Origin: a virus
Lineage: Duplodnaviria; Heunggongvirae; Uroviricota; Caudoviricetes
Direction: 5' to 3' (one strand)
Virus record (IMG/VR): IMGVR_UViG_2703718840_000012
Length of the DNA stretch: 14,266 nucleotides
Positions 1 through 14,266 of this stretch are shown here, one piece after another. Numbering within the stretch: the first letter of the stretch is position 1; each line of letters begins with the position of its first letter. The notes beneath the pieces were generated by a model, which worked only from the letters and a program-made list of their open reading frames with translations, made no database searches and was not told the DNA's origin. Both the position numbers and the translations under genes were made by a program.

Positions 1-93
1 GCGGAGTTATCCCGCGTAGAGATAGTCGAGCTGCTCAGTCAGGAGTCGGAAAAATTTCACAATATCGGATTGTCTCGCGGGGAGGTGCTTTGA
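1..93 (+). CDS. 3' end of an upstream phage early ORF (partial; 30 codons open from window edge to TGA at 91-93)
   Basis: Frame 1 is open from position 1 to a TGA at 91-93 that overlaps the next gene's ATG (93-95) by one base, as is typical of the packed P2 early operon. Not in the ORF track because it has no start codon in the window. Confidence 0.35.
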
Positions 94-392
94 TGTCCTG
101 TTCTCATTCAGTTGTATTACTGAATAACGCCTTAAAAATCGCCGTTATGAAAAATGGCGATTTGTCTCTTATTCAACTTTGTCTTGATAAAGAAAAACGC
201 GACATCACTGAATCTGTTATCGCGATTTATCAGAATGAATTAAACCTCCTGTCTGATGTGGTCAATTTACTTGTTAAACGCGCTGTATTCCACAAGCAAA
301 TTTCCTCAGTGGATGAACTGACAAAATTAACGACAGAACTTGCCAGTTATTGCGCTGATGTATCCAGGAAACTTAACGATAAAAGGAGCTGA
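93..392 (+). CDS. hypothetical phage early-operon protein
   Basis: ORF-track 90..392; the ATG at 93 is preceded by GGAGG (81-85) at 7-nt spacing, and the TTG at 90 is likely an artefact. Stop at 390-392 sits 2 nt before the next RBS/ATG. Position matches the small-ORF block between B and A in P2. Confidence 0.6.
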   Translation: MSCSHSVVLLNNALKIAVMKNGDLSLIQLCLDKEKRDITESVIAIYQNELNLLSDVVNLLVKRAVFHKQISSVDELTKLTTELASYCADVSRKLNDKRS

Positions 393-394
393 TA

Positions 395-619
395 ATGCCG
401 GATAACGTAGATTTTATTCAGGAACAACAGGCTGAATTACTGGAGCGCCAGATTAACGCGGCAAGGGTAAAACATTGCGGTGCTTCTGCGCTGGTTTGCG
501 AAGAGTGTGACGCGCCAATACCTGCTGCCCGTCGTGCGGCTTATCCGTCAGCCACGCGTTGTGTTTCCTGTCAGTCAGTCTTTGAAGCAAAAAACAAACA
601 TTACCGGAGAACGGCATGA
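395..619 (+). CDS. TraR/DksA-family C4-type zinc-finger protein
   Basis: Translation contains two CxxC pairs (CEEC ... CVSC) with the spacing of TraR/DksA C4 zinc fingers. AGGAG at 384-388 is 6 nt upstream of the ATG; the stop overlaps the next ATG (ATGA at 616-619). Confidence 0.8.
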   Translation: MPDNVDFIQEQQAELLERQINAARVKHCGASALVCEECDAPIPAARRAAYPSATRCVSCQSVFEAKNKHYRRTA

Positions 620-891
620 GTATTCGTATTGAAATTGGCGAACGTTATGTCGTTACCAGTGACAGCTTTCAGTTTATTCTCCACGAGAAAAAGAGAGCGG
701 AAAGCGGTAAAAACGCCGGTCAGGAATGGCTGTCGGTGGTTGGTTATTACCCGAAATTAAGCCAGCTCGTTTCCGGCCTGATGCATCACGATATTCTGAC
801 CGGAAGCGCAAAGTCTTTTGCTGATTTAAACGTGCAGGTTGAGCAACTCAGCAAGCGTTGTTCAGAGGCTTTTGGCTCATATGGCCGTTAA
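616..891 (+). CDS. hypothetical phage early-operon protein
   Basis: ATG at 616 with GGAGA at 604-608; the 3' end overlaps the gpA start at 881. Compact, overlapping organisation typical of a phage operon. Confidence 0.6.
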   Translation: MSIRIEIGERYVVTSDSFQFILHEKKRAESGKNAGQEWLSVVGYYPKLSQLVSGLMHHDILTGSAKSFADLNVQVEQLSKRCSEAFGSYGR

Positions 892-3157
892 AGCCTCCGG
901 GCGTTTTGTCCCTCCGTCAGCATTTGCCGCAGGCACCGGTAAGGCGTTTACCGGTGCTTATGCATGGAACGCGCCACGCGAGGCTGTCGGGCGCGAAAGA
1001 CCCCTTACACGTGACGAGATGCGTCAGGTGCAAGGTGTTTTATCCACGATTAACCGCCTGCCTTACTTTTTGCGCTCGCTGTTTACGTCACGCTATGACT
1101 ACATCCGGCGCAATAAAAGCCCGGTGCACGGGTTTTATTTTCTCACATCCACTTTTCAGCGTCGTTTATGGCCGCGCATTGAGCGTGTGAATCAGCGCCA
1201 TGAAATGAACACCGACGCGTCGTTGCTGTTTCTGGCAGAGCGTGACCATTATGCGCGTCTGCCGGGGATGAATGACAAGGAGCTGAAAAAGTTTGCCGCC
1301 CGTATCTCATCGCAGCTTTTCATGATGTATGAGGAACTCTGCGATGCCTGGGTGGATGCGCATGGCGAAAAAGAATCGCTGTTTACGGATGAGGCGCAGG
1401 CTCACCTCTATGGTCATGTTGCTGGTGCTGCACGTGCTTTCAATATTTCCCCGCTCTACTGGAAAAAATACCGTAAAGGGCAGATGACCAAGAGGCAGGC
1501 ATATTCTGCCATTGCCCGTCTGTTTAACGATGAGTGGTGGACCCATCAGCTTAAAGGCCAGCGTATGCGCTGGCATGAGGCGTTACTGATTGCTGTCGGG
1601 GAGGTCAATAAAGACCGTTCTCCTTATGCCAGTAAACATGCCATTCGTGATGTGCGTGCACGCCGCCAGGCAAATCTGGAATTTCTTAAATCGTGTGATC
1701 TCGAAAACAGGGAAACCGGCGAGCGCATCGACCTTATCAGTAAGGTGATGGGCAGTATTTCTAATCCTGAAATTCGCCGGATGGAGCTGATGAACACCAT
1801 TGCCGGTATTGAGCGTTACGCCGCAGCAGAGGGTGATGTGGGGATGTTTATCACGCTGACCGCGCCGTCAAAGTATCACCCGACACGTCAGGTCAGAAAA
1901 GGCGAAAGTAAAACCGTCCAGCTAAATCACGGCTGGAACGATGAGGCATTTAATCCAAAGGATGCGCAGCGTTATCTCTGCCGTATCTGGAGCCTGATGC
2001 GCACGGCATTCAAGGATAATGATTTACAGGTCTACGGTTTGCGTGTCGTCGAGCCACACCACGACGGAACGCCGCACTGGCATATGATGCTTTTTTGTAA
2101 TCCGCGCCAGCGTAACCAGATTATCGAAATCATGCGTCGCTATGCGCTCAAAGAGGATGGCGATGAAAGAGGAGCCGCGCGAAACCGTTTTCAGGCAAAA
2201 CACCTTAACCGGGGCGGTGCTGCGGGGTATATCGCGAAATACATCTCAAAAAACATCGACGGCTATGCACTGGATGGTCAGCTCGATAACGATACCGGCA
2301 GGCCGCTGAAAGACACTGCTGCGGCTGTTACCGCATGGGCGTCAACGTGGCGCATCCCGCAATTTAAAACGGTTGGTCTGCCAACAATGGGGGCTTACCG
2401 TGAACTACGCAAATTGCCGCGCGGCGTCAGCATTGCTGATGAGTTTGACGAGCGCGTCGAGGCTGCACGCGCCGCCGCAGACAGTGGTGATTTTGCGTTG
2501 TATATCAGCGCGCAGGGTGGGGCAAATGTCCCGCGCGATTGTCAGACTGTCAGAGTCGCCCGTAGCCCGTCGGATGACGTTAACGAGTACGAGGAAGAGG
2601 TCGAGAGGGTGGTCGGCATTTACGCGCCGCATCTCGGCGCGCGTCATATTCATATCACCAGAACGACGGACTGGCGCATTGTGCCGAAAGTTCCGGTCGT
2701 TGAGCCTTTGACTTTAAAAAGCGGCATCGCCGCGCCTCGGAGTCCTGTCAATAACTGTGGAAAGCTCACCGGTGGTGATACTTCGTTACCGGCTCCCACA
2801 CCTTCTGAGCACGCCGCAGCAGTGCTTAATCTGGTAGATGACGGTGTTATCGAATGGAATGACCAGGAGGTCGTGAGGGCGCTCAGAGGTGCATTAAAAC
2901 ACGGTCTGAGAAGACCAAACCGTCAGCAAAGAAACGGAAGCCCGTTAAAACCGCATGAAATAGCGCCATCGGCCAGACTGACCCGGTCGGAACGAATGCA
3001 AATTACCCGTATCCGCGTTGACCTTGCTCAGAACGGTATCAGGCCACAGCGATGGGAGCTTGAGGCGCTGGCGCGTGGCGCGACCGTAAATTATGACGGG
3101 GAAAAATTCACGTATCCGGTCGCTGATGAGTGGCCGGGATTCTCAACAAACATATAA
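881..3157 (+). CDS. A: P2-type replication initiation endonuclease gpA (rolling-circle initiator)
   Basis: ORF-track 839..3157 starts at a TTG; the ATG at 881 gives MAVKASGRFVPPSAFAAGTGK..., which I recognise as the P2 gpA N-terminus. Length (~758 aa) fits gpA and it contains the HWHMMLF block. Recognition is from memory, not a search. Confidence 0.9.
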   Translation: MAVKASGRFVPPSAFAAGTGKAFTGAYAWNAPREAVGRERPLTRDEMRQVQGVLSTINRLPYFLRSLFTSRYDYIRRNKSPVHGFYFLTSTFQRRLWPRIERVNQRHEMNTDASLLFLAERDHYARLPGMNDKELKKFAARISSQLFMMYEELCDAWVDAHGEKESLFTDEAQAHLYGHVAGAARAFNISPLYWKKYRKGQMTKRQAYSAIARLFNDEWWTHQLKGQRMRWHEALLIAVGEVNKDRSPYASKHAIRDVRARRQANLEFLKSCDLENRETGERIDLISKVMGSISNPEIRRMELMNTIAGIERYAAAEGDVGMFITLTAPSKYHPTRQVRKGESKTVQLNHGWNDEAFNPKDAQRYLCRIWSLMRTAFKDNDLQVYGLRVVEPHHDGTPHWHMMLFCNPRQRNQIIEIMRRYALKEDGDERGAARNRFQAKHLNRGGAAGYIAKYISKNIDGYALDGQLDNDTGRPLKDTAAAVTAWASTWRIPQFKTVGLPTMGAYRELRKLPRGVSIADEFDERVEAARAAADSGDFALYISAQGGANVPRDCQTVRVARSPSDDVNEYEEEVERVVGIYAPHLGARHIHITRTTDWRIVPKVPVVEPLTLKSGIAAPRSPVNNCGKLTGGDTSLPAPTPSEHAAAVLNLVDDGVIEWNDQEVVRALRGALKHGLRRPNRQQRNGSPLKPHEIAPSARLTRSERMQITRIRVDLAQNGIRPQRWELEALARGATVNYDGEKFTYPVADEWPGFSTNI

Positions 3158-3218
3158 AAATGATTGAAATGGTTGATTTTGCTTCCACTTGATGGTTGGT
3201 ATCAGCAACTGATGGATC

Positions 3219-3479
3219 ATGCGGAACTGCGTGGCGATCTTGCTTTGGAAGCATGTCATTATGACTAATGCATACATTACTAGCTATGCGTCCGGTTCCG
3301 CCATTGTACTCGTGCAAGAGTCTGCGGCTGATGGCTATTGTTTACAAATTATGGTCAAAGAGAATCTGACCCTCTACGAGTTGGTCGGAGGGACTGAGAT
3401 CGTCAGTGATAACTGCAGCCGTATGGGAGAAATCAATAATCCCAACCGTCCATATTTCTACCTTCACGCGTGCCCATAA
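3219..3479 (+). CDS. hypothetical small protein downstream of A (orf91-like position); start may be ATG 3261
   Basis: ORF-track ORF; no strong RBS at either candidate start. Composition is intermediate between the backbone and the AT-rich cargo. Confidence 0.3.
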   Translation: MRNCVAILLWKHVIMTNAYITSYASGSAIVLVQESAADGYCLQIMVKENLTLYELVGGTEIVSDNCSRMGEINNPNRPYFYLHACP

Positions 3480-3644
3480 TCTGTCACCACGTTGACCATA
3501 GAAAACCCCGTCGACGCTGAAACTCGCTTTCAGTGCTGGCGGGGGTGAACAACGAGCTTGCGAGGCGTTAGGGATGTCGAAATTTCATATGACTGTTCGC
3601 TTTAATGCTTAACGAAGTCATGTTGAGTTAATAACATTTTTTCG

Positions 3645-5189
3645 TTAAGCGCTGTGTTCCTTGTCGAATAAGTTCACTTCTTCTGGTGTAATATCATTAT
3701 CCATTTCTTCGAATGCATCTAAATCCACAATTTTTGTTTTTTTCAAAATTGATAGTATTTTCTGTTTGTTTTTACTTTTGGCTGAACCCGGAATCCACTC
3801 TACATCCCACAGGCCATCAATGGTAAATGTTTTTTTTCCCTTGAGTTCATCATTTATGCGTTGACATAGGGCTGTTTTGTAATCGCCTTCCCATTGTGTG
3901 TGTATCTTCCCTTGAACTCGTTGAAACCAAATATCTAACATTTCAGTATTTGGTTGTTTACCTAGTTTACAATGAAGTTGTTGTAACTTGCCAAATTTGA
4001 GTTCATCGTCGTCATAAAGGAAGGTCAAGAGTTTTGCGAAAATAGCCATTCCCACTGGGTAGGTGGTTGGGTTTTTAGCCATGATGCTTGAAATAATTCC
4101 AAGCATTGCATCTAGTTGATGCCCACTATTTGTGATCTTTTTCTTCCTAAATAATTTTCGCAAGAAATCATTTAAATATCTAACTGTAATTTTGGAGTTT
4201 TGATGTTTTAAAGAAAATAAATATATTGCATACAACATTTTCTGTAGGGAGTTGAACGACTTTTCTATAATATATTCTTTTTTTGCTGATTTAAGGGAGT
4301 GAAGAATGATGTCGTCATGTAGTTCTGTTTTTCTTGAGTTTAAATCAAGCCCAAACTCACCTAAGACCTCAACCAAACACTTTGAGATTTTGTCCAAATC
4401 ATCTTTACTGCTTGAAAATATTCGATAATCATCTCTGTAGCGAACTACTTTGTAATCCGTTATTTTTTGCTCTTCAGTTTTTTTTCTTAGCTGTAAATCA
4501 ATTTCGCCTAAAATTAATTCGGCAAATGTATCCATCAACGTACTACCCAATGGTATTCCGTTTGTCTGATTACTCATCATCATCTGGATATGAGTGTCAA
4601 TCAATCGTCCTGGGTTATTGTTATTTTCTTTCTTTTTGGCCTCTTCTTTTGAGATGAATACCCATTCAAAGCTATGAGTGTAAATAGAAGGGTAGAAGTT
4701 TGAAATATCTGTGCTGAACATGAACTCATACTCAAGAGCCAATGAAAGACTTTTTTGTTCAAAATCTTCCCACCAGTTTAAAACAGATGCAGCTACGTTT
4801 GAGGTGTTCTTTTTGCTCACTGGGGTACTTGAGCATAAAAAAAGATCATTAGACTCAAACTCTCTAAATTTATTCTTTATAGCCTTCCAGTTGGAAGGGG
4901 ATGTAATAAGTTTACAAAAATACACGTAGTATAGAGGATTAATTAGTGTTATTCGTCGCCAGCTATATAAGCCATCTTTGCTGACTAAAACCTCGTAATT
5001 TATATTCTTCCCCATCAATGACTTGGAGTCAGGTTGGAAGTTGATTTTACCTTCATCTATCGCGGAGTTGATTTCTTCAAGCAAGGAAGAAAAATCGACA
5101 TAACTGGGTAGCTCCAGAGTAGTGTATGAATCATGCTGCAGAAAATACTTAAGCGCTCTACCAGTAGTTAATTCATAAATCTTTTTCAT
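3645..5189 (-). CDS. reverse transcriptase, Abi/UG-like single-gene type with ~220-aa C-terminal extension
   Basis: Translation shows RT motifs in order: SWRRITLINP (motif 2), FSTDISNFYPSI (motif A, catalytic D), NGIPLGSTLMDTFAELIL (motif B), VVRYRDDYRIF (YxDD motif C), GLDLNSRKT (motif D/E). ATG at 5189 (MKKIYELT...) is preferred; the ORF-track start at 5315 is a TTG and the extension reads as Cys/His-rich junk running into the cos flank. Same position and orientation as old in P2. Confidence 0.8.
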   Translation of the reverse strand: MKKIYELTTGRALKYFLQHDSYTTLELPSYVDFSSLLEEINSAIDEGKINFQPDSKSLMGKNINYEVLVSKDGLYSWRRITLINPLYYVYFCKLITSPSNWKAIKNKFREFESNDLFLCSSTPVSKKNTSNVAASVLNWWEDFEQKSLSLALEYEFMFSTDISNFYPSIYTHSFEWVFISKEEAKKKENNNNPGRLIDTHIQMMMSNQTNGIPLGSTLMDTFAELILGEIDLQLRKKTEEQKITDYKVVRYRDDYRIFSSSKDDLDKISKCLVEVLGEFGLDLNSRKTELHDDIILHSLKSAKKEYIIEKSFNSLQKMLYAIYLFSLKHQNSKITVRYLNDFLRKLFRKKKITNSGHQLDAMLGIISSIMAKNPTTYPVGMAIFAKLLTFLYDDDELKFGKLQQLHCKLGKQPNTEMLDIWFQRVQGKIHTQWEGDYKTALCQRINDELKGKKTFTIDGLWDVEWIPGSAKSKNKQKILSILKKTKIVDLDAFEEMDNDITPEEVNLFDKEHSA

Positions 5190-5395
5190 AATTAGTGATT
5201 TCTTCTTAAGTTGCGCACAAATAACTACCTGTTTTCTATCATGATAACGATGCGAATGCGAGCAATTCAGGAAGTGCATTACTCTGCATCGAAGCGCACG
5301 CAAGTCAGAGAACAATAACTGCCTGGCGACATCAGGACTGGCGCGCTAGTTGAGTGGTCATGCAACTGCATTAAAACCGCCCCATGAAGCGGGCG

Positions 5396-5414
5396 GGCGA
5401 GGCGGGGAAAGCAC
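5396..5414. other. P2-type cos site (19-nt cohesive-end sequence GGCGAGGCGGGGAAAGCAC)
   Basis: Exact 19-nt string ggcgaggcggggaaagcac inside a GC-rich island between the two AT-rich RT genes. It matches the P2/186 cohesive-end sequence as I recall it, and sits where cos is expected, between the old-slot gene and Q. Confidence 0.65.
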
Positions 5415-5452
5415 TGCGCGCTAAACGATGTCGCTGGCTTGCAGTTACCCGG

Positions 5453-5481
5453 TTGAAATTCTTATTTTTTTGTTGCATTAT
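5453..5481 (+). promoter_or_regulatory. candidate sigma70 promoter for the RT2 leader/operon (TTGAAA-17 nt-CATTAT)
   Basis: -35 ttgaaa at 5453-5458, 17-nt spacer, -10 cattat at 5476-5481, immediately right of cos and about 250 nt upstream of the RT2 start. Sequence-only call. Confidence 0.25.
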
Positions 5482-5527
5482 TCTTAGCGCACCAGCGATT
5501 CGCTTGGTATGCGGCAGTCAACAACAT

Positions 5528-5722
5528 TAAATTGTCAGTTTTTGCTTTTACAAAAAAGCGTCCACTATGGACCTATCAGCGAGGCCCCACCGTCGTCAAC
5601 TACGATGGTGCCGTAGCCGACGACATTACGTACGGTCGAAAGATAGCAGAGGCTGTTGCTGACAATTGTTGATGTAAGCATCTCTGCTGTTCCACCCTTG
5701 AGTATGGGAAGACCGTACGTAA
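5528..5722 (+). ncRNA. candidate structured leader / retron-like ncRNA (msr-msd-like) upstream of RT2
   Basis: Nested and crossing inverted repeats: 9-bp aattgtcag (5530-5538) vs ctgacaatt (5659-5667), extendable to ~14 bp with a bulge; a two-tier hairpin at 5591-5622; a perfect 12-bp repeat ttacgtacggtc (5626-5637) vs gaccgtacgtaa (5711-5722) ending 18 nt before the RT2 ATG. Architecture is ncRNA -> RT -> effector as in retrons. Boundaries are approximate. Confidence 0.3.
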
Positions 5723-5739
5723 CTTTGAATTTGAATGGT

Positions 5740-6930
5740 ATGTTTATGGATAAATTTAAACCATACAGCAAATCCAATGCTCCTATCACAACACTTGAAA
5801 AGTTGTCAAAGGCTTTATCGATTTCTGTTGAAGAGCTTAAAGCTATTGCAGAATTACCATTAGATGAGAAATATACTCTAAAAGAAATTCCCAAAATTGA
5901 CGGAAGCAAACGGATTGTCTACTCCCTGCATCCTAAAATGAGATTATTACAGAGTAGAATTAATAAACGTATCTTTAAGGAATTGGTTGTTTTTCCTTCA
6001 TTTTTGTTTGGTTCAGTTCCCAGTAAAAATGATGTTTTAAATTCTAATGTCAAACGTGACTATGTTTCATGTGCAAAGGCTCATTGTGGAGCAAAAACAG
6101 TTCTCAAGGTGGATATAAGTAATTTTTTCGATAATATCCATAGAGATCTGGTTAGGAGCGTGTTTGAGGAGATATTGCATATTAAGGATGAGGCTCTTGA
6201 ATACTTGGTGGAAATATGTACTAAGGATGATTTTGTCGTACAGGGGGCCTTAACATCAAGCTATATAGCAACTTTGTGTTTATTCGCTGTTGAAGGGGAT
6301 GTGGTAAGACGTGCGCAGAGGAAAGGACTTGTTTATACGCGTTTGGTAGATGATATTACCGTGTCATCTAAAATAAGTAATTATGATTTTTCTCAAATGC
6401 AAAGCCATATAGAGAGGATGCTTTCTGAGCATGACTTGCCGATAAATAAGCGCAAAACTAAAATATTTCACTGTTCATCTGAACCTATAAAAGTACATGG
6501 TTTAAGAGTTGACTATGACTCACCTCGACTACCATCCGATGAAGTCAAAAGAATCAGGGCATCTATACATAATTTGAAATTACTGGCGGCAAAAAATAAC
6601 ACAAAAACAAGTGTTGCATACAGAAAAGAATTCAATAGATGTATGGGGAGAGTGAATAAGCTTGGCCGTGTTGCGCATGAAAAATATGAATCATTCAAGA
6701 AACAGTTGCAGGCAATAAAACCGATGCCATCTAAAAGAGATGTTGCTGTGATTGATGCAGCTATAAAAAGTTTAGAGTTGTCGTATTCGAAAGGTAATCA
6801 AAATAAACATTGGTATAAAAGAAAATATGATTTGACGAGATATAAGATGATTATTCTTACTCGCTCTGAATCATTTAAAGAAAAACTGGAGTGTTTTAAA
6901 TCTAGATTGGCATCTTTAAAACCATTATGA
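5740..6930 (+). CDS. retron-type reverse transcriptase (divergent catalytic motifs)
   Basis: Translation shows YTLKEIPKIDGSKRIVYSLHP (motifs 1-2), HCGAKTVLKVDISNFFDNI (motif A), VVQGALTSSYIATL (motif B), YTRLVDDI (motif C, both Asp present), INKRKTKI, then VHGLRVDY...VKRIRASIHNL, resembling the retron RT VTG/thumb region. Start is ambiguous among ATG 5704, 5740 and 5746, none with a strong SD; the ORF-track start 5656 is a TTG. Confidence 0.85.
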   Translation: MFMDKFKPYSKSNAPITTLEKLSKALSISVEELKAIAELPLDEKYTLKEIPKIDGSKRIVYSLHPKMRLLQSRINKRIFKELVVFPSFLFGSVPSKNDVLNSNVKRDYVSCAKAHCGAKTVLKVDISNFFDNIHRDLVRSVFEEILHIKDEALEYLVEICTKDDFVVQGALTSSYIATLCLFAVEGDVVRRAQRKGLVYTRLVDDITVSSKISNYDFSQMQSHIERMLSEHDLPINKRKTKIFHCSSEPIKVHGLRVDYDSPRLPSDEVKRIRASIHNLKLLAAKNNTKTSVAYRKEFNRCMGRVNKLGRVAHEKYESFKKQLQAIKPMPSKRDVAVIDAAIKSLELSYSKGNQNKHWYKRKYDLTRYKMIILTRSESFKEKLECFKSRLASLKPL

Positions 6931-7634
6931 ATGCAAATATTAGACTTCTCAAATATATTGTCGGTGTGTCGTCAGCTCTTTTTTTGATTTTTTCGCTAAT
7001 TTCTCTTTTTGAAACTATTCAGAATGAAAAGCTATATGAGCGTGATATATGCTTCGATAGCCAGTGCTTAAAATTTTTTGCGGAAAAAACATCTGGTATA
7101 GTAATGTATTTTCAGGCGTTTGGATGGCTTATAACAACTTTTGTTACCGTTTTTGGTGTTATGATTGCTTTGATGACATATAACGCTGGAGTTAAAAATA
7201 ATAATAATAGTAATTACACTAGTCATCTGACGATGTTTAGAGAATTTGCAAGTGCTGAGTTAACTAAAAGAAGTAGCATCTATCCAGAGAAAGTTAATTT
7301 TTTTAGATGGTATAGGGTTATGTTCCCTGAAGCGCAAGGCGGTGATATATCTGTTTCGAGAGATTATCTAGAAATAATATCTAGAATCAAATGTGTTATT
7401 GAGGAAGCCAATGCACATATTACAGAGGAAAATAAAGACTATAAATATAAAACTCATCAGAGAAAAATGATGGCTGTTTTGGATGAAATCGGTATATCGA
7501 TTAGTAATGGGCCCAAAAATATTTTTATTGAGGTTGAGAGTCAAATTTTGGATTATATCGATACTATTAATTTGTCATTTTGTCACTCCTCATCAGTGAT
7601 AGAATTAAGTAGAGTAAAAAGGAAGTATATATAG
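6927..7634 (+). CDS. two-transmembrane-helix membrane protein with ~150-aa soluble C-terminal domain; candidate effector of the RT2 module
   Basis: ATG overlaps the RT2 stop (ATGA at 6927-6930), indicating translational coupling. Two hydrophobic stretches (YIVGVSSALFLIFSLISLF and IVMYFQAFGWLITTFVTVFGVMIALMTY) near the N-terminus; same AT-rich composition as RT2. Confidence 0.8.
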   Translation: MNANIRLLKYIVGVSSALFLIFSLISLFETIQNEKLYERDICFDSQCLKFFAEKTSGIVMYFQAFGWLITTFVTVFGVMIALMTYNAGVKNNNNSNYTSHLTMFREFASAELTKRSSIYPEKVNFFRWYRVMFPEAQGGDISVSRDYLEIISRIKCVIEEANAHITEENKDYKYKTHQRKMMAVLDEIGISISNGPKNIFIEVESQILDYIDTINLSFCHSSSVIELSRVKRKYI

Positions 7635-7636
7635 TT

Positions 7637-7672
7637 AAGTTGGCGGGATTGCATTCCGCCAACTTTATATAT
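7637..7672. terminator. GC-rich hairpin with T-rich tail between the cargo operon and the 3' end of Q; candidate bidirectional terminator
   Basis: aagttggcgg (7637-7646) pairs with ccgccaactt (7656-7665) around a 9-nt loop, followed by tttatatattt. Lies 3 nt after the 2TM stop and 5 nt before the Q stop on the other strand. Confidence 0.45.
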
Positions 7673-7676
7673 TTAC

Positions 7677-8696
7677 TTATAAGTTATAATCAAGGAATTT
7701 TATGACTTCCATATCTAACCATTCATTTATTGACTTTATTCTCTCCTGTAATGGAATGAGTTCATTGCGGACAAAGACCTTTGCCACTTTTTCAATATCT
7801 CCTAGTGACCCGACATTCTCCGGCTTACCGCCCATCAACTGAAAGGGGATGCGGTGTGCGTCCAGGAGATCTGCGGCGCTGACTTTTTTGATATTAAAAA
7901 AATCGTCCTTCGTCGCCACTTCACTGAGGGGGATAATTTTAATGCCGTCGGCTTTCCCCTGTGGGGCATAGAGAAACAGGTTTTTAAAGTTGTTGCGGCC
8001 TTTTGACTTAACCATGTTTTCGCGAAGCATTTCGATATCGTTGCGGTCCTGCACGGCATCGGTGACGTACATGATGTATCCGGCATGAGCGCCGTTTTCG
8101 TAATACTTGCGGCGGAACAGCGTGGCCGACTCATTCAGCCAGGCAGAGTTAAGGGCGCTGAGATATTCCGGCAGGCCGTACAGCTCCTGATTAATATCAG
8201 GCTCCAGCAGGTGAAACACGGAGCCGGGCGCGAAGGCTGTCGGCTCGTTGAAGGACGGCACCCACCAGTAAACATCCTCCTCCACGCCACGACGGGTATA
8301 TTTGGCCGGTGAGGTTTCCAGTCTGATGACCTTACCGGTGGTGCTGTAACGCTTTTCCAGAAACGCATTACCGAACACCAGAAAATCCAGCACAAAGCGG
8401 CTGAAATCCTGCTGGGACAGCCACGGGTGCGGGATAAACGTTGAAGCCAGAATATTGCGTTTAACGTAAATCGGTGAGCTGTGATGCACGGCAGCACGCA
8501 GGCTTTTTGCCAGACCGGTAAAGCTGACCGGTGGCTCATACCATCTGCCGTTACTGATGCACTCGACGTAATCCAGAATATCACGGCGGTCGAGTACCGG
8601 CACCGGCTCACCAAAGGTGAATGCCTCCATTTTCGGGGCGCTGGCAGTCATTGTTTTCACCGCTGGCTGCGGTGTTTTCCCTTTTTTCTTACTCAT
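7677..8696 (-). CDS. Q: P2-type capsid portal protein gpQ
   Basis: 339-aa ORF (P2 gpQ is similar in size), GGAG RBS 9 nt upstream, ATG overlapping the stop of the upstream terminase ORF (ATGA at 8693-8696), cos-proximal and on the leftward strand as in P2. Confidence 0.88.
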   Translation of the reverse strand: MSKKKGKTPQPAVKTMTASAPKMEAFTFGEPVPVLDRRDILDYVECISNGRWYEPPVSFTGLAKSLRAAVHHSSPIYVKRNILASTFIPHPWLSQQDFSRFVLDFLVFGNAFLEKRYSTTGKVIRLETSPAKYTRRGVEEDVYWWVPSFNEPTAFAPGSVFHLLEPDINQELYGLPEYLSALNSAWLNESATLFRRKYYENGAHAGYIMYVTDAVQDRNDIEMLRENMVKSKGRNNFKNLFLYAPQGKADGIKIIPLSEVATKDDFFNIKKVSAADLLDAHRIPFQLMGGKPENVGSLGDIEKVAKVFVRNELIPLQERIKSINEWLDMEVIKFLDYNL

Positions 8697-9607
8697 CAGT
8701 AAAACTCCAGAATGGTGGATGTCAGCGGGGTGCTGATACCGGCGGTGAGTGGCTCATTTAACAGGGCGTGCATGGTCGCCCAGGCGAGATCGGCGTGGCT
8801 GGCTTCCTCGCTGCGGCTGGCCTCATAGGTGGCGCTGCGTCCGCTGCTGGTCATGGTCTTGCGGATAGCCATAAACGAGCTGGTGATGTCGGTGGCGCTG
8901 ACGTCATATTCCAGACAGCCACGGCGGATAACGTCTTTTGCCTTGAGCACCATTGCGGTTTTCATTTCCGGCGTGTAGCGGATATCGCGCGCGGCGGGAT
9001 AGAACGAGCGCACGAGCTGGAACACGCCGACACCGAGGCCGGTGGCATCAATCCCGATGTATTCAACGTTATATTTTTCGGTGAGTTTGCGGATGGATTC
9101 CGCCTGGGTGGCAAAGTCCATGCCTTTCCACTGGTGACGCTCAAGTATTCTGAATTTGCCACCGGCCACCACCGGCGGTGCCAGTACCACGCATCCGGCG
9201 CTGTCGCCACGGTGTGACGGGTCGTAACCAATCCATACCGGGCGGGAGCCGAACGGATTTGCGGCAAACGGCGCATAGTCTTCCCATTCTTCCAGCGTGT
9301 CGACCATGCAACGTTGCAGCTCCTCGAACGGGAACACCGACGCCTTGTCGTCAACAAATTCACACATGAACAGGTTTTTAAAATCGTCGGCGCTGTTTTC
9401 ACGTTTGAGCTGCTCAATGTCGAACAGTGTGCAGCCACCTTTCAGGGCGTCCTCAATGGTGACAATCTGCCGCCACTGGCCGTCCGCACAGAGAAGCCCA
9501 CCGGCAAGGGCGTTATGACTGACGTCGATTTCCACGCGTTCGGCGGCGCTGGCGCGTCCCCGGTTGAACAGTTCACCCGACCAGAACGGGTACCCTGGAT
9601 AATCCGG
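8696..9607 (-). pseudogene. P: terminase ATPase/nuclease subunit gpP, C-terminal ~300 aa only (5' half deleted)
   Basis: Reading frame is continuous with the Q overlap and is open upstream of the GTG at 9535 back to a TAA at 9608-9610, with no plausible start or N-terminal ATPase region. About 300 aa are present against the ~590 expected for gpP. Confidence 0.8.
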
Positions 9608-9846
9608 TTAAACGTGGTGAACAGGTTATCGAACAGGTCACGCTGATGAAACCCAATGCCGGGACGCTGCGCGGTGTCAGTCTGGCTGCGGTCGCAAACT
9701 CCGAAGTCGATGCACTGATTAAAGTGCTGCCGCGCATGACGGCACCGATGCTGACCGAGCAGGAGGTCGCCGCGCTGGAACTGCCTGACCTTGTGGCGCT
9801 GGCCGGTAAGGTGGTCGGTTTTTTGTCGCCGAACTCGGTGCAGTGA
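9568..9846 (+). pseudogene. E: tail assembly chaperone gpE, 5'-truncated at the deletion junction (first ATG at 9646)
   Basis: Frame open from 9568. Ends ...GKVVGFLSPNSVQ with the heptamer T TTT TTG (9819-9825) in the correct phase for the -1 shift that makes E+E' in P2-like phages. Abuts the P fragment on the opposite strand. Confidence 0.6.
9819..9825 (+). other. programmed -1 ribosomal frameshift slippery heptamer (T_TTT_TTG) of the E/E' pair
   Basis: X_XXY_YYZ pattern in phase with the E frame (codons GGT TTT TTG); the -1 frame stays open for ~55 codons to a TGA at 9990-9992. Confidence 0.55.
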
Positions 9847-9898
9847 CGTTTCCGAAAAATCTCTCGGTCGATGACCTGATGGCGGATGTGGCAGTGAT

Positions 9899-10675
9899 AT
9901 TTCACTGGCCGCCATCACCGGCATCAATGCCATCATCGCGGCAGCAGGCGCAATGGGGGCAATCTTCACGACGGTTGGCAGTGCTGTTATGACCGCCATC
10001 GGAGCGATTAGCTGGCCGGTTGTGGCCGTGGTGGCCGCCATTGTCGCCGGGGCGTTGCTTATCCGTAAATACTGGGAGCCTGTCAGCGCATTCTTTGGCG
10101 GTGTGGTGGAAGGGCTGAAAGCGGCATTTGCGCCGGTGGGGGAACTGTTCACGCCACTTAAGCCGGTGTTTGACTGGCTGGGCGAAAAGTTACAGGCCGC
10201 GTGGCAGTGGTTTAAAAACCTGATTGCCCCGGTTAAAGCCACCCAGGACACCCTGAACCGTTGCCGTGACACGGGCGTCATGTTCGGGCAGGCACTGGCT
10301 GACGCGTTGATGCTGCCGCTTAATGCGTTCAACAAACTGCGCAGTGGTATTGACTGGGTACTGGAAAAACTCGGTGTTATCAACAAAGAGTCAGACACAC
10401 TTGACCAGACCGCCGCCAGAACTCATGCCGCCACGTATGGCACCGGTGGTTATATTCCGGCGACCAGCTCTTATGCAGGCTATCAGGCTTATCAGCCGGT
10501 TACGGCACCGGCTGGCCGCTCTTATGTGGACCAGAGTAAAAACGAATATCACATCAGTCTGACGGGCGGTACTGCGCCGGGGACTCAGCTCGACCGCCAG
10601 TTACAGGATGCGCTCGAAAAATATGAGCGGGATAAACGTGCGCGCGCCCGTGCCAGCATGATGCATGACGGTTAA
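9899..10675 (+). pseudogene. T: tail tape measure protein gpT, C-terminal ~240-260 aa only
   Basis: Frame open from 9899, first ATG at 9953, stop at 10673-10675 directly before the U RBS. Hydrophobic segment plus a C-terminal ...ERDKRARARASMMHDG tail typical of P2-like tape measures; far shorter than the ~800 aa expected. Confidence 0.75.
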
Positions 10676-12733: not shown

Positions 12734-12760
12734 AAAAAATAAGCCCGTGTAAGGGAGATT
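12734..12760. other. P2 attachment-site core (attR), 27 bp AAAAAATAAGCCCGTGTAAGGGAGATT
   Basis: Exact 27-nt string at 12734-12760, about 100 nt after ogr and 145 nt before host yegQ, matching the P2 att core as I recall it. The phage-host junction is therefore here. Confidence 0.65.
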
Positions 12761-12904
12761 ACACAGGCTAAGGAGGTGGTTCCTGGTACAGCTAGCATTT
12801 TATGGGTTATGTTTTTCAGCGAAACGGATGATAACCTTAATAAATGCAGCTGTATGTGATCGGTTTCTAAGAATTTTCCATCCGGGAAAAATAATCGAAA
12901 TTAA

Positions 12905-14266
12905 TCACTTACCGTGTGGGTTACGCGTGGTTTCCCCGGAGAAATTACGCATCAGCAGAGCGTAATTGAGCTCAAGATCCTGCGGGACCGGGAGCCACAC
13001 AGTATAACCATCGCCTGGTGCGACCGGCATCGCTTCACCTATGGCGTTTTCCATGTGCTCAAGGGTAAAGTTAATGTTGCCTTGCGGCGTCATCAGCTCA
13101 AGGCTGTCGCCAACGGAGAATTTATTTTTCACCGCTACCGCCGCGAGGTCCCCCTTGCGCTCACCGGTAAACTCACCAACAAACTGCTGGCGGTCAGAAA
13201 CTGAATAACCGTATTCGTAGTTCTGATAATCGTCGTGAGTATGACGACGCAGGAAACCTTCGGTATAGCCACGATGCGCCAGACCTTCCAGAGTTTCCAG
13301 CAGGCTGGTATCGAACGGTTTGCCCGCAGCGGCGTCATCGATAGCTTTACGGTAAACCTGTGCGGTGCGTGCGCAATAGTAGAAAGATTTAGTACGGCCT
13401 TCGATTTTCAGCGAATGCACGCCCATTTTGGTCAGGCGTTCTACATGGGCGATGGCGCGCAGATCTTTCGAGTTCATGATGTAAGTGCCGTGCTCATCTT
13501 CAAACGCGGTCATATACTCGCCCGGACGCTGGGCTTCTTCGATCATAAACACTTTGTCGGTTGGCGCGCCGATACCCAGCGTCGGCTCAACATTTTGCAC
13601 CGGAATCGGCTCGTACTTGTGTACGATGTTGCCAACGTCATCTTCTTTCCCTTCCTGGACGTTGTACTCCCAGCGGCAGGCGTTGGTGCAGGTACCCTGG
13701 TTCGGATCGCGCTTGTTGATATAGCCAGAGAGCAGGCAGCGACCGGAGTAGGCCATGCACAGTGCGCCGTGAACGAAGATCTCGATCTCCATATCCGGCA
13801 CCTGATTGCGGATCTCTTCAATCTCTTCCAGCGACAGCTCGCGAGAGAGGATCACGCGGGTCAGGCCCATTTGCTGCCAGAATTTCACCGTCGCCCAGTT
13901 TACGGCGTTAGCCTGCACCGAGAGGTGGATCGGCATTTCAGGGAAGTGCTCACGCACCAGCATAATCAGCCCTGGATCGGACATAATCAGCGCATCCGGC
14001 CCCATTTCCACCACCGGTTTCAGGTCACGGATAAAGGTTTTCAGCTTGGCGTTGTGCGGTGCAATGTTGACCACGACATAAAACTTTTTCCCCAGCGCGT
14101 GGGCTTCATTGATGCCGAGCTGAAGATTTTCGTGGTTGAATTCGTTGTTGCGCACACGCAGGGAGTAACGCGGCTGGCCCGCATAAACAGCATCTGCGCC
14201 ATAAGCGAAAGCGTAACGCATATTTTTCAGCGTTCCCGCCGGGGAAAGGAGTTCCGGTTTAAACAT
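12905..14266 (-). CDS. yegQ: host peptidase U32-family protein YegQ (TrhP, tRNA hydroxylation)
   Basis: 453-aa ORF MFKPELLSPAGTLKNMRYAFAYGADAVYAG... recognised as E. coli YegQ. The ATG is the last triplet of the window (14264-14266 on the minus strand), so the CDS is complete but its promoter is outside. Confidence 0.92.
   Translation of the reverse strand: MFKPELLSPAGTLKNMRYAFAYGADAVYAGQPRYSLRVRNNEFNHENLQLGINEAHALGKKFYVVVNIAPHNAKLKTFIRDLKPVVEMGPDALIMSDPGLIMLVREHFPEMPIHLSVQANAVNWATVKFWQQMGLTRVILSRELSLEEIEEIRNQVPDMEIEIFVHGALCMAYSGRCLLSGYINKRDPNQGTCTNACRWEYNVQEGKEDDVGNIVHKYEPIPVQNVEPTLGIGAPTDKVFMIEEAQRPGEYMTAFEDEHGTYIMNSKDLRAIAHVERLTKMGVHSLKIEGRTKSFYYCARTAQVYRKAIDDAAAGKPFDTSLLETLEGLAHRGYTEGFLRRHTHDDYQNYEYGYSVSDRQQFVGEFTGERKGDLAAVAVKNKFSVGDSLELMTPQGNINFTLEHMENAIGEAMPVAPGDGYTVWLPVPQDLELNYALLMRNFSGETTRNPHGK

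Follow-up and report, generated by a model that had tools for sequence, protein, structure and literature searches.

Retron-Eco6 (Ec48) was reportedly described by Mao et al. in 1997, and its reverse transcriptase (RT) is already in use for genome editing. Its role in defence and its RecBCD-guard logic were shown in 2020 (Millman et al.). The published experiments on Ec48 cover defence, abortive infection, triggering by Gam or gp5.9 and the lethal effect of the system when recB is deleted (Millman et al., preprint), and Gam has been independently confirmed as a trigger (10.1101/2025.10.22.683967). The definition of the type IV family includes a two-transmembrane (2-TM) effector adjoining the RT (PMC7736814). 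When expressed alone, the Eco6 accessory protein was non-toxic (Palka et al., PMC8989520), and ‘membrane toxin’ therefore stays a model rather than a demonstrated activity.

Several other systems resemble Eco6 in part. Retron-Sen1 (Se72, type V) and Retron-Vpa2 (type VI) have an RT of clade 3, as Eco6 does. Sen1 is triggered by lambda Gam, as is Eco6 (10.1101/2025.10.22.683967), but the type V effector is a cold-shock-domain protein rather than a 2-TM protein. Type VI retrons have a long ‘hybrid RNA’ – with a1/a2-like repeats far apart and an RNA structure controlling translation – that resembles the long leader described below. However, their effectors are an HTH protein and a small toxic peptide whose coding sequence lies within the RNA, and their msDNA is not detectable until triggered, whereas that of Eco6 is constitutive. 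Retron-Eco1 (Ec86) and Retron-Eco2 (Ec67) are found in P2/186-like prophages, while the retron studied here lies between cos and a terminator shared with gene Q; they belong to other RT clades and have other effectors (an NDT-like protein; an RT-Toprim fusion). P2 Old is reported to be another abortive-infection gene of the P2 prophage, lethal in recB-deficient cells, but Old is an ATPase-TOPRIM nuclease without sequence relationship to the Ec48 effector. The transmembrane (TM) effectors of CBASS have been likened to the Ec48 effector, both being viewed as suicide proteins that act at the membrane (Millman et al., preprint); the CBASS two-TM effectors also lack sequence relationship to it, and they are activated by cyclic nucleotides, not by a retron.

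Retron genes and their identity with Ec48

The window analysed here is a stretch of 14,266 nucleotides of a Caudoviricetes virus record. An earlier note, made from the sequence without database searches, had marked 5740–7634 as a retron-like RT coupled to a 2-TM protein. This span holds the RT and effector genes but omits the promoter and non-coding RNA (ncRNA) at 5453–5745 and the terminator at 7637–7665. The features of the retron are:

5453–5481, plus strand: sigma-70-type promoter with −35 TTGAAA (5453–5458), a 17-nt spacer and −10 CATTAT (5476–5481), from a consensus scan
5467–5652, plus strand: published Retron-Eco6 (Ec48) ncRNA according to the retron census, from the supplement alignment and primers
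5586–5633, minus strand: msd, template of the 48-nt msDNA, including the DNA hairpin arms 5592–5604 and 5612–5624, from the census RT-DNA 5′ end, PMC8989520 and an inverted repeat
5746–6930, plus strand: type IV retron RT (RT-Eco6/Ec48), 394 aa, from PADLOC RT_IV, Pfam RVT_1, the RefSeq start and the Ec48 RT primers
6349–6354, plus strand: catalytic DD codons (LVDD), D216/D217 in the 408-aa numbering, from the sequence and Millman et al.
6927–7634, plus strand: Retron Ec48 two-transmembrane effector, 235 aa, from PADLOC, NCBIfam, the UniRef name and hydropathy
7637–7665, plus strand: intrinsic-terminator-like hairpin (13-bp stem, then a T-rich tail) that separates the effector gene from portal gene Q, which runs convergently

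The RT belongs to type IV (clade 3). It matches the PADLOC RT_IV profile end to end (1.9e-176, 584.9 bits; residues 8–395 against profile positions 2–385 of 386), the next best profile being RT_V (210 bits); RT_VI, also of clade 3, scores 181 bits. It also matches Pfam RVT_1. The motifs VHGLRVDY and VKRIRASIHNL named in the earlier note are present in its translation, and GATGAT at 6349–6354 does encode the DD of RLVDDITV. In the 394-aa protein, CAKAH is at residue 109, LVDD at 200 and VHG at 250. VHG in place of VTG (region Y) and CAKAH in place of NAXXH (region X) are the substitutions reported specifically for RT-Eco6 (PMC6868368). Both termini agree with the Ec48 RT primers (GRPYVTLN and LASLKPL).

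The RT frame is open in translation from 5656 to the TGA at 6928–6930 and has three in-frame ATGs, at 5704, 5740 and 5746. The start given in the earlier note, 5740, is indeed an in-frame ATG, but homologues and RefSeq favour 5746 (MDKFKP, 394 aa). The numbering of the literature, in which D216 and D217 were changed to alanine (Millman et al., preprint), fits the DD codons when counted from the ATG at 5704 (408 aa). This ATG is near-invariant (46 of 48 related loci), yet it is in the RT frame in only 6 of the 48, and it was rejected as the RT start; it is a piece of the leader hairpin SL4 or the start of an upstream ORF of 2–22 codons.

The downstream protein matches PADLOC 2TM_IV (4e-85, 282.9 bits) and the NCBIfam equivalog NF038235 (retron_Ec48_2TM; 226.7 bits, cut-off 65), and UniRef names its exact sequence ‘Retron Ec48 transmembrane protein’ (RepID TM48_ECOLX). 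As predicted, it has two N-terminal hydrophobic segments, at residues 10–28 and 58–83 (Kyte-Doolittle 19-residue means of 2.2 and 2.1); beyond residue 95 no such mean exceeds 0.85. The sequence at 6920–6940 reads AACCATTATGAATGC, and the effector ATG (6927) overlaps the RT stop codon as ATGA (6927–6930), the arrangement that the earlier note had described.

Upstream of the RT, the ncRNA sequence of the census aligns to 5467–5652 with no mismatches and three gaps in the machine-read supplement text, and the Ec48 primers of Kong et al. match exactly at 5577–5602 and 5599–5621. The ncRNA sequence itself had no match in a full-text literature search. The RT-DNA 5′ end taken from the census supplement falls on C5633, and the msDNA is the reverse complement of 5586–5633, 5′-GTACGTAATGTCGTCGGCTACGG... 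The Ec48 msDNA has been reported as 48 nt, though sequencing by Palka et al. gave a product three bases shorter, 45 nt, and its termination depends on RNase H1 (PMC8989520). With the 45-nt msDNA, the template would be 5589–5633.

Profiles, exact-sequence look-ups and published sequences bear out the layout of ncRNA, retron RT and 2-TM effector, and the locus is almost certainly Retron-Eco6 (Ec48), a type IV retron (Millman et al. 2020; Mestre et al. 2020) in the variable cos-to-Q site of a P2-like prophage, working in defence as a RecBCD guard. Among 5426 complete E. coli genomes, 57 carry the DNA at 5420–7640 with at least 99% identity (100% for the top matches listed), and phage pro147 carries it with 100% identity; for all matches listed the effector is labelled ‘retron Ec48 family effector membrane protein’ in RefSeq. 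Ec48 and the present locus share the RT profile and signature substitutions, the exact effector sequence, the ncRNA and msd, the gene order, the RT/effector overlap and an E. coli host. No difference was detected within the retron, only in its surroundings, where the prophage is partly deleted, and nothing contradicting the Ec48 identification was detected. The RefSeq accession of the RT here is WP_063553684.1, while the Eco6 entry of the retron census is WP_097505494.1; from the termini, motifs and numbering we infer full-length identity to the RT of the tested clone. This is an already known, textbook defence system and no discovery. The earlier note was correct in calling it a retron; of the two options it allowed, a known type or a divergent relative, the first holds and the second is excluded.

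The identity of the RT, effector and ncRNA with published Ec48, and their anatomy, are established here. Because the sequence is identical to the published system, msDNA production, dependence on the DD and the TM helices, defence and the RecBCD-guard trigger are carried over from published experiments on Ec48 and would be expected of this copy. The single promoter (ca. 5453–5481) would drive the leader, the RT and the translationally coupled membrane protein. The RT would bind the leader RNA and copy it from 5633 to 5586 into the 48-nt msDNA, with RNase H1 fixing the termination point. In the uninfected cell RT, msDNA and effector would be kept inactive; a phage that blocks RecBCD, with lambda Gam or T7 gp5.9, would trigger the system, and the membrane effector would then stop or kill the cell before phage progeny are made.

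Prophage surroundings and alternative explanations

Two features upstream of the promoter give the context of the retron:

3645–5189, minus strand: AbiP2 abortive-infection RT (RT1 of the earlier note) with a YRDD motif, a separate defence gene, from PADLOC AbiP2 (4.1e-160)
5396–5414, plus strand: presumed P2 cohesive-end (cos) sequence, GGCGAGGCGGGGAAAGCAC, one exact match with none expected by chance

The 19-mer GGCGAGGCGGGGAAAGCAC, which we take to be the P2 cos end, separates the retron from the AbiP2 gene, and the retron lies between it and portal gene Q. The match between the window and pro147 breaks off at 9592, within the terminase gene, and resumes first in tail gene E and then in the tape-measure gene, so that the prophage lacks ca. 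17 kb of genes for head, lysis and tail. Abi-P2 is known from P2 prophages (PMC8632793). The locus neatly illustrates the stacking of defence genes around cos in P2-like prophages – the retron on one side, AbiP2 on the other – and both have outlasted the loss of phage structural genes.

With a true Abi-class RT 500 bp away on the opposite strand, and with small membrane proteins used by some DRT systems (PMC8632793), the locus could be read as a non-retron defence RT of the DRT/UG or Abi class with a small membrane protein and no msDNA. This is extremely unlikely. Of the 25 best PADLOC matches of the RT, one is to a CRISPR-associated RT profile and all others are to retron-type RTs; DRT and Abi profiles are absent from them, which speaks against its being a second AbiP2, a single-gene Abi-class RT characterised by YRDD and a functionally unassigned C-terminal domain and lacking an msr-msd. 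Its matches to NCBIfam Drt2 and Drt3a are far under the cut-offs, and the RNA upstream contains the published msd. There is next to no chance, either, that the ATGA overlap is incidental and that the 2-TM protein serves the phage in lysis or superinfection exclusion, with no relation to the RT, even though this protein is small, membrane-bound and encoded in a prophage beside packaging genes. The 2-TM family follows the RT in 52 of 54 related loci; these come from Enterobacterales, Pseudomonas, Vibrionaceae, Burkholderiales and other groups, and the majority do not belong to P2 phages. This speaks against the idea, raised as a possible refutation in the earlier note, of a conserved phage structural or lysis protein. 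Deletion of the TM helices abolishes Ec48 defence (Millman et al., preprint), and the intact relative pro147 encodes its own holin, endolysin and spanins elsewhere.

A divergent or new retron type that merely resembles the 2-TM retrons can hardly be credited. It would be suggested by the atypical RT motifs (VHG for VTG, CAKAH for NAXXH, LVDD for YADD), by a search of all Rfam families (E ≤ 1) that found no RNA family in the leader and by a Pfam search that found no family for the 2-TM protein in the copy used, which predates PF28197 (Retron_Ec48_antiviral, carried by neighbours of related RTs in precomputed annotations). However, the atypical motifs are those published for RT-Eco6, both type IV profiles match end to end, the DNA is nearly or fully identical to loci annotated as Ec48 family, and the published ncRNA and primers map exactly. 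Finally, the retron of this strain could be intact in sequence but silent or irrelevant, carried as it is by a deleted remnant. The extent of the deletion favours this, but it is distinctly improbable – the retron brings a conserved promoter and terminator of its own, its ORFs are uninterrupted and show 100% identity with those of intact prophages, and cloned Ec48 is active outside any prophage (Millman et al., preprint).

A conserved leader longer than the published ncRNA

Beyond confirming Eco6, the one point of research value in this locus is its leader, a family-wide RNA longer and more knotted than the ncRNA of published constructs. Its features are:

5484–5739, plus strand: conserved structured leader (retron ncRNA and downstream extension), directly 5′ of the RT, from covariance model R1
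5491–5508, plus strand: 5′-terminal hairpin H0, 94–100% paired, 6 of 7 pairs with compensatory change
5518–5538, plus strand: 5′ arms of helix K (a1/a2-like, long-range), 5518–5524 and 5532–5538, pairing with 5659–5672
5544–5572, plus strand: msr-type hairpins SL1 (5544–5549/5554–5559) and SL2 (5560–5564/5568–5572), from covariation
5626–5652, plus strand: 5′ arms of helices I1 (5626–5637) and P2 (5646–5652), from an inverted repeat and covariation
5659–5672, plus strand: 3′ arms of helix K, past the end of the published ncRNA and within the apical loop of hairpin I1/P2, from pairing and covariation
5681–5722, plus strand: 3′ arms of P2 (5681–5687) and I1 (5711–5722) with SL4 (5695–5697/5706–5708) between them, from pairing and covariation

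The earlier note had proposed a structured leader ahead of the RT, and this is well supported. The RNA at 5515–5680 folds with a z-score of −4.0 relative to shuffled sequences, and model R1 (262 positions) matches over its full length in 48 of 54 type IV loci, immediately 5′ of the RT (E-values from 1e-67 to 2e-5). In these, 89.7% of the cells are paired, against 35–44% in slid controls, and 58 of the 61 pairs have a compensatory change. Almost every one of the 48 related loci has a TTGnnn/−10 pair equally far 5′ of the conserved leader. Transcription is inferred to begin at ca. 5487–5489.

I1 is a perfect 12-bp inverted repeat, 97.8% paired and with compensatory changes at 12 of 12 pairs, while P2 is 87.5% paired. 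SL1 (91.5% paired, 5 of 6 pairs compensatory) and SL2 (97.1%, 5 of 5) are similarly conserved, and the near-invariant AUG at 5704–5706 sits in the loop and stem of SL4. Helix K, which is absent from model R1, is 68–97% paired across 48 sequences, with many compensatory changes. The 5′ arms of I1 and P2 overlap the first eight bases to be templated, together with the sequence immediately 3′ of the template. The conserved leader, with its crossing, covariation-supported helices, extends ca. 85 nt beyond the published end of the ncRNA and may be undescribed.

The priming geometry seen in the present analysis is not canonical. Helix K is closed by the conserved G5538, whose context is like that of a canonical priming G, opposite C5659, and the reported msDNA start at C5633 is 26 nt away; a longer primary cDNA might explain this gap. 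A U-rich ‘a1’, as the start of the published ncRNA would imply, falls inside the promoter and is unconserved (mean z −0.05). Three candidate elements find no support as family features. The best candidate for a canonical a1 upstream of the leader (5460–5474, with G5475) pairs at 13 of 15 positions with several G-U wobbles, but it is within the promoter and unconserved (mean z −0.05, 48 loci), and its duplex energy is no better than that of shuffled sequences. G5715 pairs with C5633 in helix I1, but as a universal priming G it is not supported, as the column is A in most relatives (U-A pair in 31 of 48). The msd hairpin (5592–5604/5612–5624), considered as a conserved RNA helix, is 70% paired with little covariation, and a local hairpin (5591–5597/5604–5610) suits the RNA alignment better.

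One tentative and rather doubtful joint reading is that type IV retrons have as their functional RNA a leader of ca. 250 nt, as opposed to the published msr-msd of ca. 185 nt, in which the template start and the stretch 3′ of it (5626–5652) are paired to 5681–5722, helix K (5518–5538/5659–5672) crosses this pairing as a pseudoknot or alternative fold, and the whole acts as a switch dependent on reverse transcription. Reverse transcription followed by removal of the template by RNase H would free the downstream segment 5681–5722, which ends 24 nt before the RT start codon. By analogy with the type VI ‘hybrid RNA’, the leader could then switch translation of the RT and effector, or priming. A longer leader could matter for priming in clade 3 retrons and for Eco6 engineering. 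The sole Rfam match in the window, CyaR, is located outside the leader.

Identity of the retron locus

On its sequence, the locus is Retron-Eco6 (Ec48), classed as type IV by Mestre et al. The earlier note had described a retron-like reverse transcriptase (RT) coupled to a two-transmembrane (2-TM) protein, and this finding was real and correctly interpreted. That note had also allowed for either a known type or a divergent relative; the former holds and the latter does not, as this is a known, experimentally characterised retron. The genes and the hairpin that follows them are:

5746–6930, plus strand: RT2, the retron-like RT
6927–7634, plus strand: the effector, a 235-aa 2-TM membrane protein
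7637–7665: a 13-bp GC-rich hairpin where the effector gene and portal Q converge; it probably terminates both transcripts

RT2 matched the PADLOC RT_IV profile end to end (584.9 bits, versus 210 bits for RT_V), and the 2-TM protein matched both PADLOC 2TM_IV (282.9 bits) and the NCBIfam equivalog 'retron Ec48 family effector membrane protein' (226.7 bits; cut-off 65). The effector is labelled Ec48 family in RefSeq, and the UniRef name on its exact sequence is 'Retron Ec48 transmembrane protein' (RepID TM48_ECOLX). RT-Eco6 has two reported peculiarities – T to H in the VTG motif and loss of N from NAXXH (PMC6868368) – and RT2, in which retron motifs had been claimed, has both (VHG, CAKAH). The Ec48 ncRNA primers of Kong et al. 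match exactly at 5577–5602 and 5599–5621, and the RT2 ORF has at its two ends GRPYVTLN and LASLKPL, the peptides that their RT primers specify. The Retron-Eco6 ncRNA as printed in the retron census maps to 5467–5652, with the first base of its RT-DNA the complement of C5633. Type IV profiles and published Ec48 sequences agree with the proposed order of ncRNA, RT and 2-TM effector, and every defining feature of the type IV/Ec48 family that can be tested in sequence was found.

Details of the genes also stood up. The RT2 stop (TGA, 6928–6930) overlaps the next start (ATG, 6927) as ATGA; GATGAT at 6349–6354 encodes the catalytic DD of LVDD; and the effector has two hydrophobic helices, at residues 10–28 and 58–83, with nothing hydrophobic afterwards. 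The proposed RT2 start at 5740 is an in-frame ATG, but it is one of three, and both the RefSeq annotation and the start of the homologues (MDKFKP) point to 5746.

Of 5426 complete E. coli genomes, 57 carry the region 5420–7640 at 99% identity or more, in every case as one chromosomal copy; identity was 100% among the E. coli matches listed on top, and 100% to phage pro147. The type IV family is broad: relatives comprised 48 loci from other species (RT identity 40–56%) and six closer ones, and the 2TM gene directly follows the RT in 52 of these 54.

Cloned Ec48 protects E. coli from siphoviruses, myoviruses and podoviruses, and defence is abolished by D216A/D217A – numbering that fits a start at ATG 5704 – or by removal of effector residues 3–85 (Millman et al.). 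Escaping phages had mutated lambda gam or T7 gene 5.9, whose products are RecBCD inhibitors and lethal when expressed in Ec48 cells, and the Ec48 plasmid could not be established in recB-deleted cells (Millman et al.). Gam was confirmed as a trigger a second time in 2025 (10.1101/2025.10.22.683967). By sequencing, Ec48 RT-DNA is 45 nt, termination of reverse transcription requires RNase H1, and in this one study the effector expressed alone was non-toxic (PMC8989520).

Structure of the leader RNA

The claim of a structured leader ahead of RT2 was borne out: the RNA exceeds its shuffled counterparts in structure (z −4.0). When the upstream regions of related loci were aligned with that of the window, conservation began at TTGAAA 5453 and continued to about 5735, exceeding the published Eco6 ncRNA end (5652) by about 85 nt. 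A covariance model of 5484–5739 matched at full length in 48 of the 54 loci. No description of this extension was found in the retron literature examined, though it may be known elsewhere; Mestre et al. cut their alignments at a1/a2. The retron system itself is already known, and the extension is a side observation. The leader's elements are:

5453–5481: conserved sigma-70-type promoter (−35-like TTGAAA at 5453, −10 17 nt later)
5491–5508: 5' hairpin, compensatory changes
5544–5572: two msr-type hairpins, compensatory changes
msd (msDNA template) region: hairpin, compensatory changes
5518–5524/5666–5672 and 5532–5538/5659–5665: helix K, a1/a2-like, compensatory changes
5626–5637 with 5711–5722: helix I1, perfect 12 bp (97.8% paired, 12 of 12 pairs compensatory)
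5646–5652 with 5681–5687: helix P2, compensatory changes
5695–5708: SL4, a small hairpin with a covarying stem

The promoter layout is shared by distant loci, which would place the RNA 5' end near 5487–5489, downstream of G5475 and of the 20 nt with which the published ncRNA opens (from 5467). An upstream U-rich 'a1' with its end at G5475, suggested by the published boundaries, was rejected as a family feature: it lies inside the promoter and is not conserved.

Helix K covaries although it was left out of the covariance model, and it crosses I1/P2 (5518–5538 with 5659–5672, against 5626–5652 with 5681–5722). The RNA is therefore either pseudoknotted or a two-state switch, with the msd template involved. 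The I1/P2 fold had a predicted energy of −87.8 kcal/mol, versus −81.6 kcal/mol when K was imposed. The 5' arm of K ends in G5538, which has a canonical priming context and opposes C5659; the reported msDNA starts opposite C5633, 26 nt upstream of C5659. C5633 lies within I1, paired with G5715, and RNA 5715–5722 (GUACGUAA) is identical in sequence to msDNA nucleotides 1–8.

Database entries and literature numbering take ATG 5704, which sits in SL4, for the RT start. This was rejected: the AUG (5704–5706) is kept in 46 of 48 relatives, yet is in the RT frame in only 6 of 48. The triplet therefore either serves as an RNA motif or opens a uORF of 2–22 codons.

For type VI retrons, a preprint reports a long hybrid RNA, msDNA control of translation and an extra 23-nt 5' msDNA segment on RecBCD inhibition. 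These likenesses to the type IV leader are suggestive parallels, not evidence.

Prophage setting

The flanking features are:

839–3157: replication protein GpA, P2-like flank
3645–5189, minus strand: AbiP2 RT, 514 aa (PADLOC 4.1e-160; YRDD motif)
5377–5396: GC-rich hairpin directly upstream of the cos 19-mer
5396–5414: exact copy of the P2 cos 19-mer GGCGAGGCGGGGAAAGCAC, between the retron and AbiP2 genes
7677–8696, minus strand: portal Q, P2-like flank
12737–12822, minus strand: CyaR (RyeE) sRNA gene (Rfam 100.7 bits), just past ogr at the prophage end
12905–14266, minus strand: U32-family peptidase gene, 453 aa, next after CyaR

Other P2-like flanking genes are terminase P (C-terminal half), GpU, GpD and Ogr. 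GC content falls from about 0.55 to 0.33–0.44 over 3500–7700, and this island contains the 19-mer, which we take to be the P2 cohesive end; the island therefore straddles cos. The AbiP2 gene is unrelated to RT2 and divergently transcribed on the opposite side of cos, so one prophage carries an RT-based abortive-infection system on each side of its cohesive-end site. Ec67 and Ec86 in 186/P2-like prophages likewise occupy the interval from cos to a packaging-gene terminator, and the hairpin at 7637–7665 fits this reported 'terminator of a packaging gene' boundary (PMC6868368).

The prophage is a remnant (positions 9591–9917 and 9905). Positions 1–9592 share 99% identity with Escherichia phage pro147 (Peduovirus); identity stops at 9592 within the terminase P gene and picks up in tail gene E, with head, lysis and tail genes totalling about 15.3 kb lost. 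The tape-measure gene has a further internal deletion of about 1.75 kb, while GpU, GpD and Ogr are still present. Among 5426 complete E. coli genomes, only one covered 80% or more of the window.

A small ORF of unknown function (3219–3479), annotated as hypothetical in pro147, separates gene A from AbiP2; in E. coli DCE7 an IS5 element (3735–4715 of the locus there) lies between the same two genes. The U32 peptidase gene is yegQ/trhP according to RefSeq in matching E. coli genomes.
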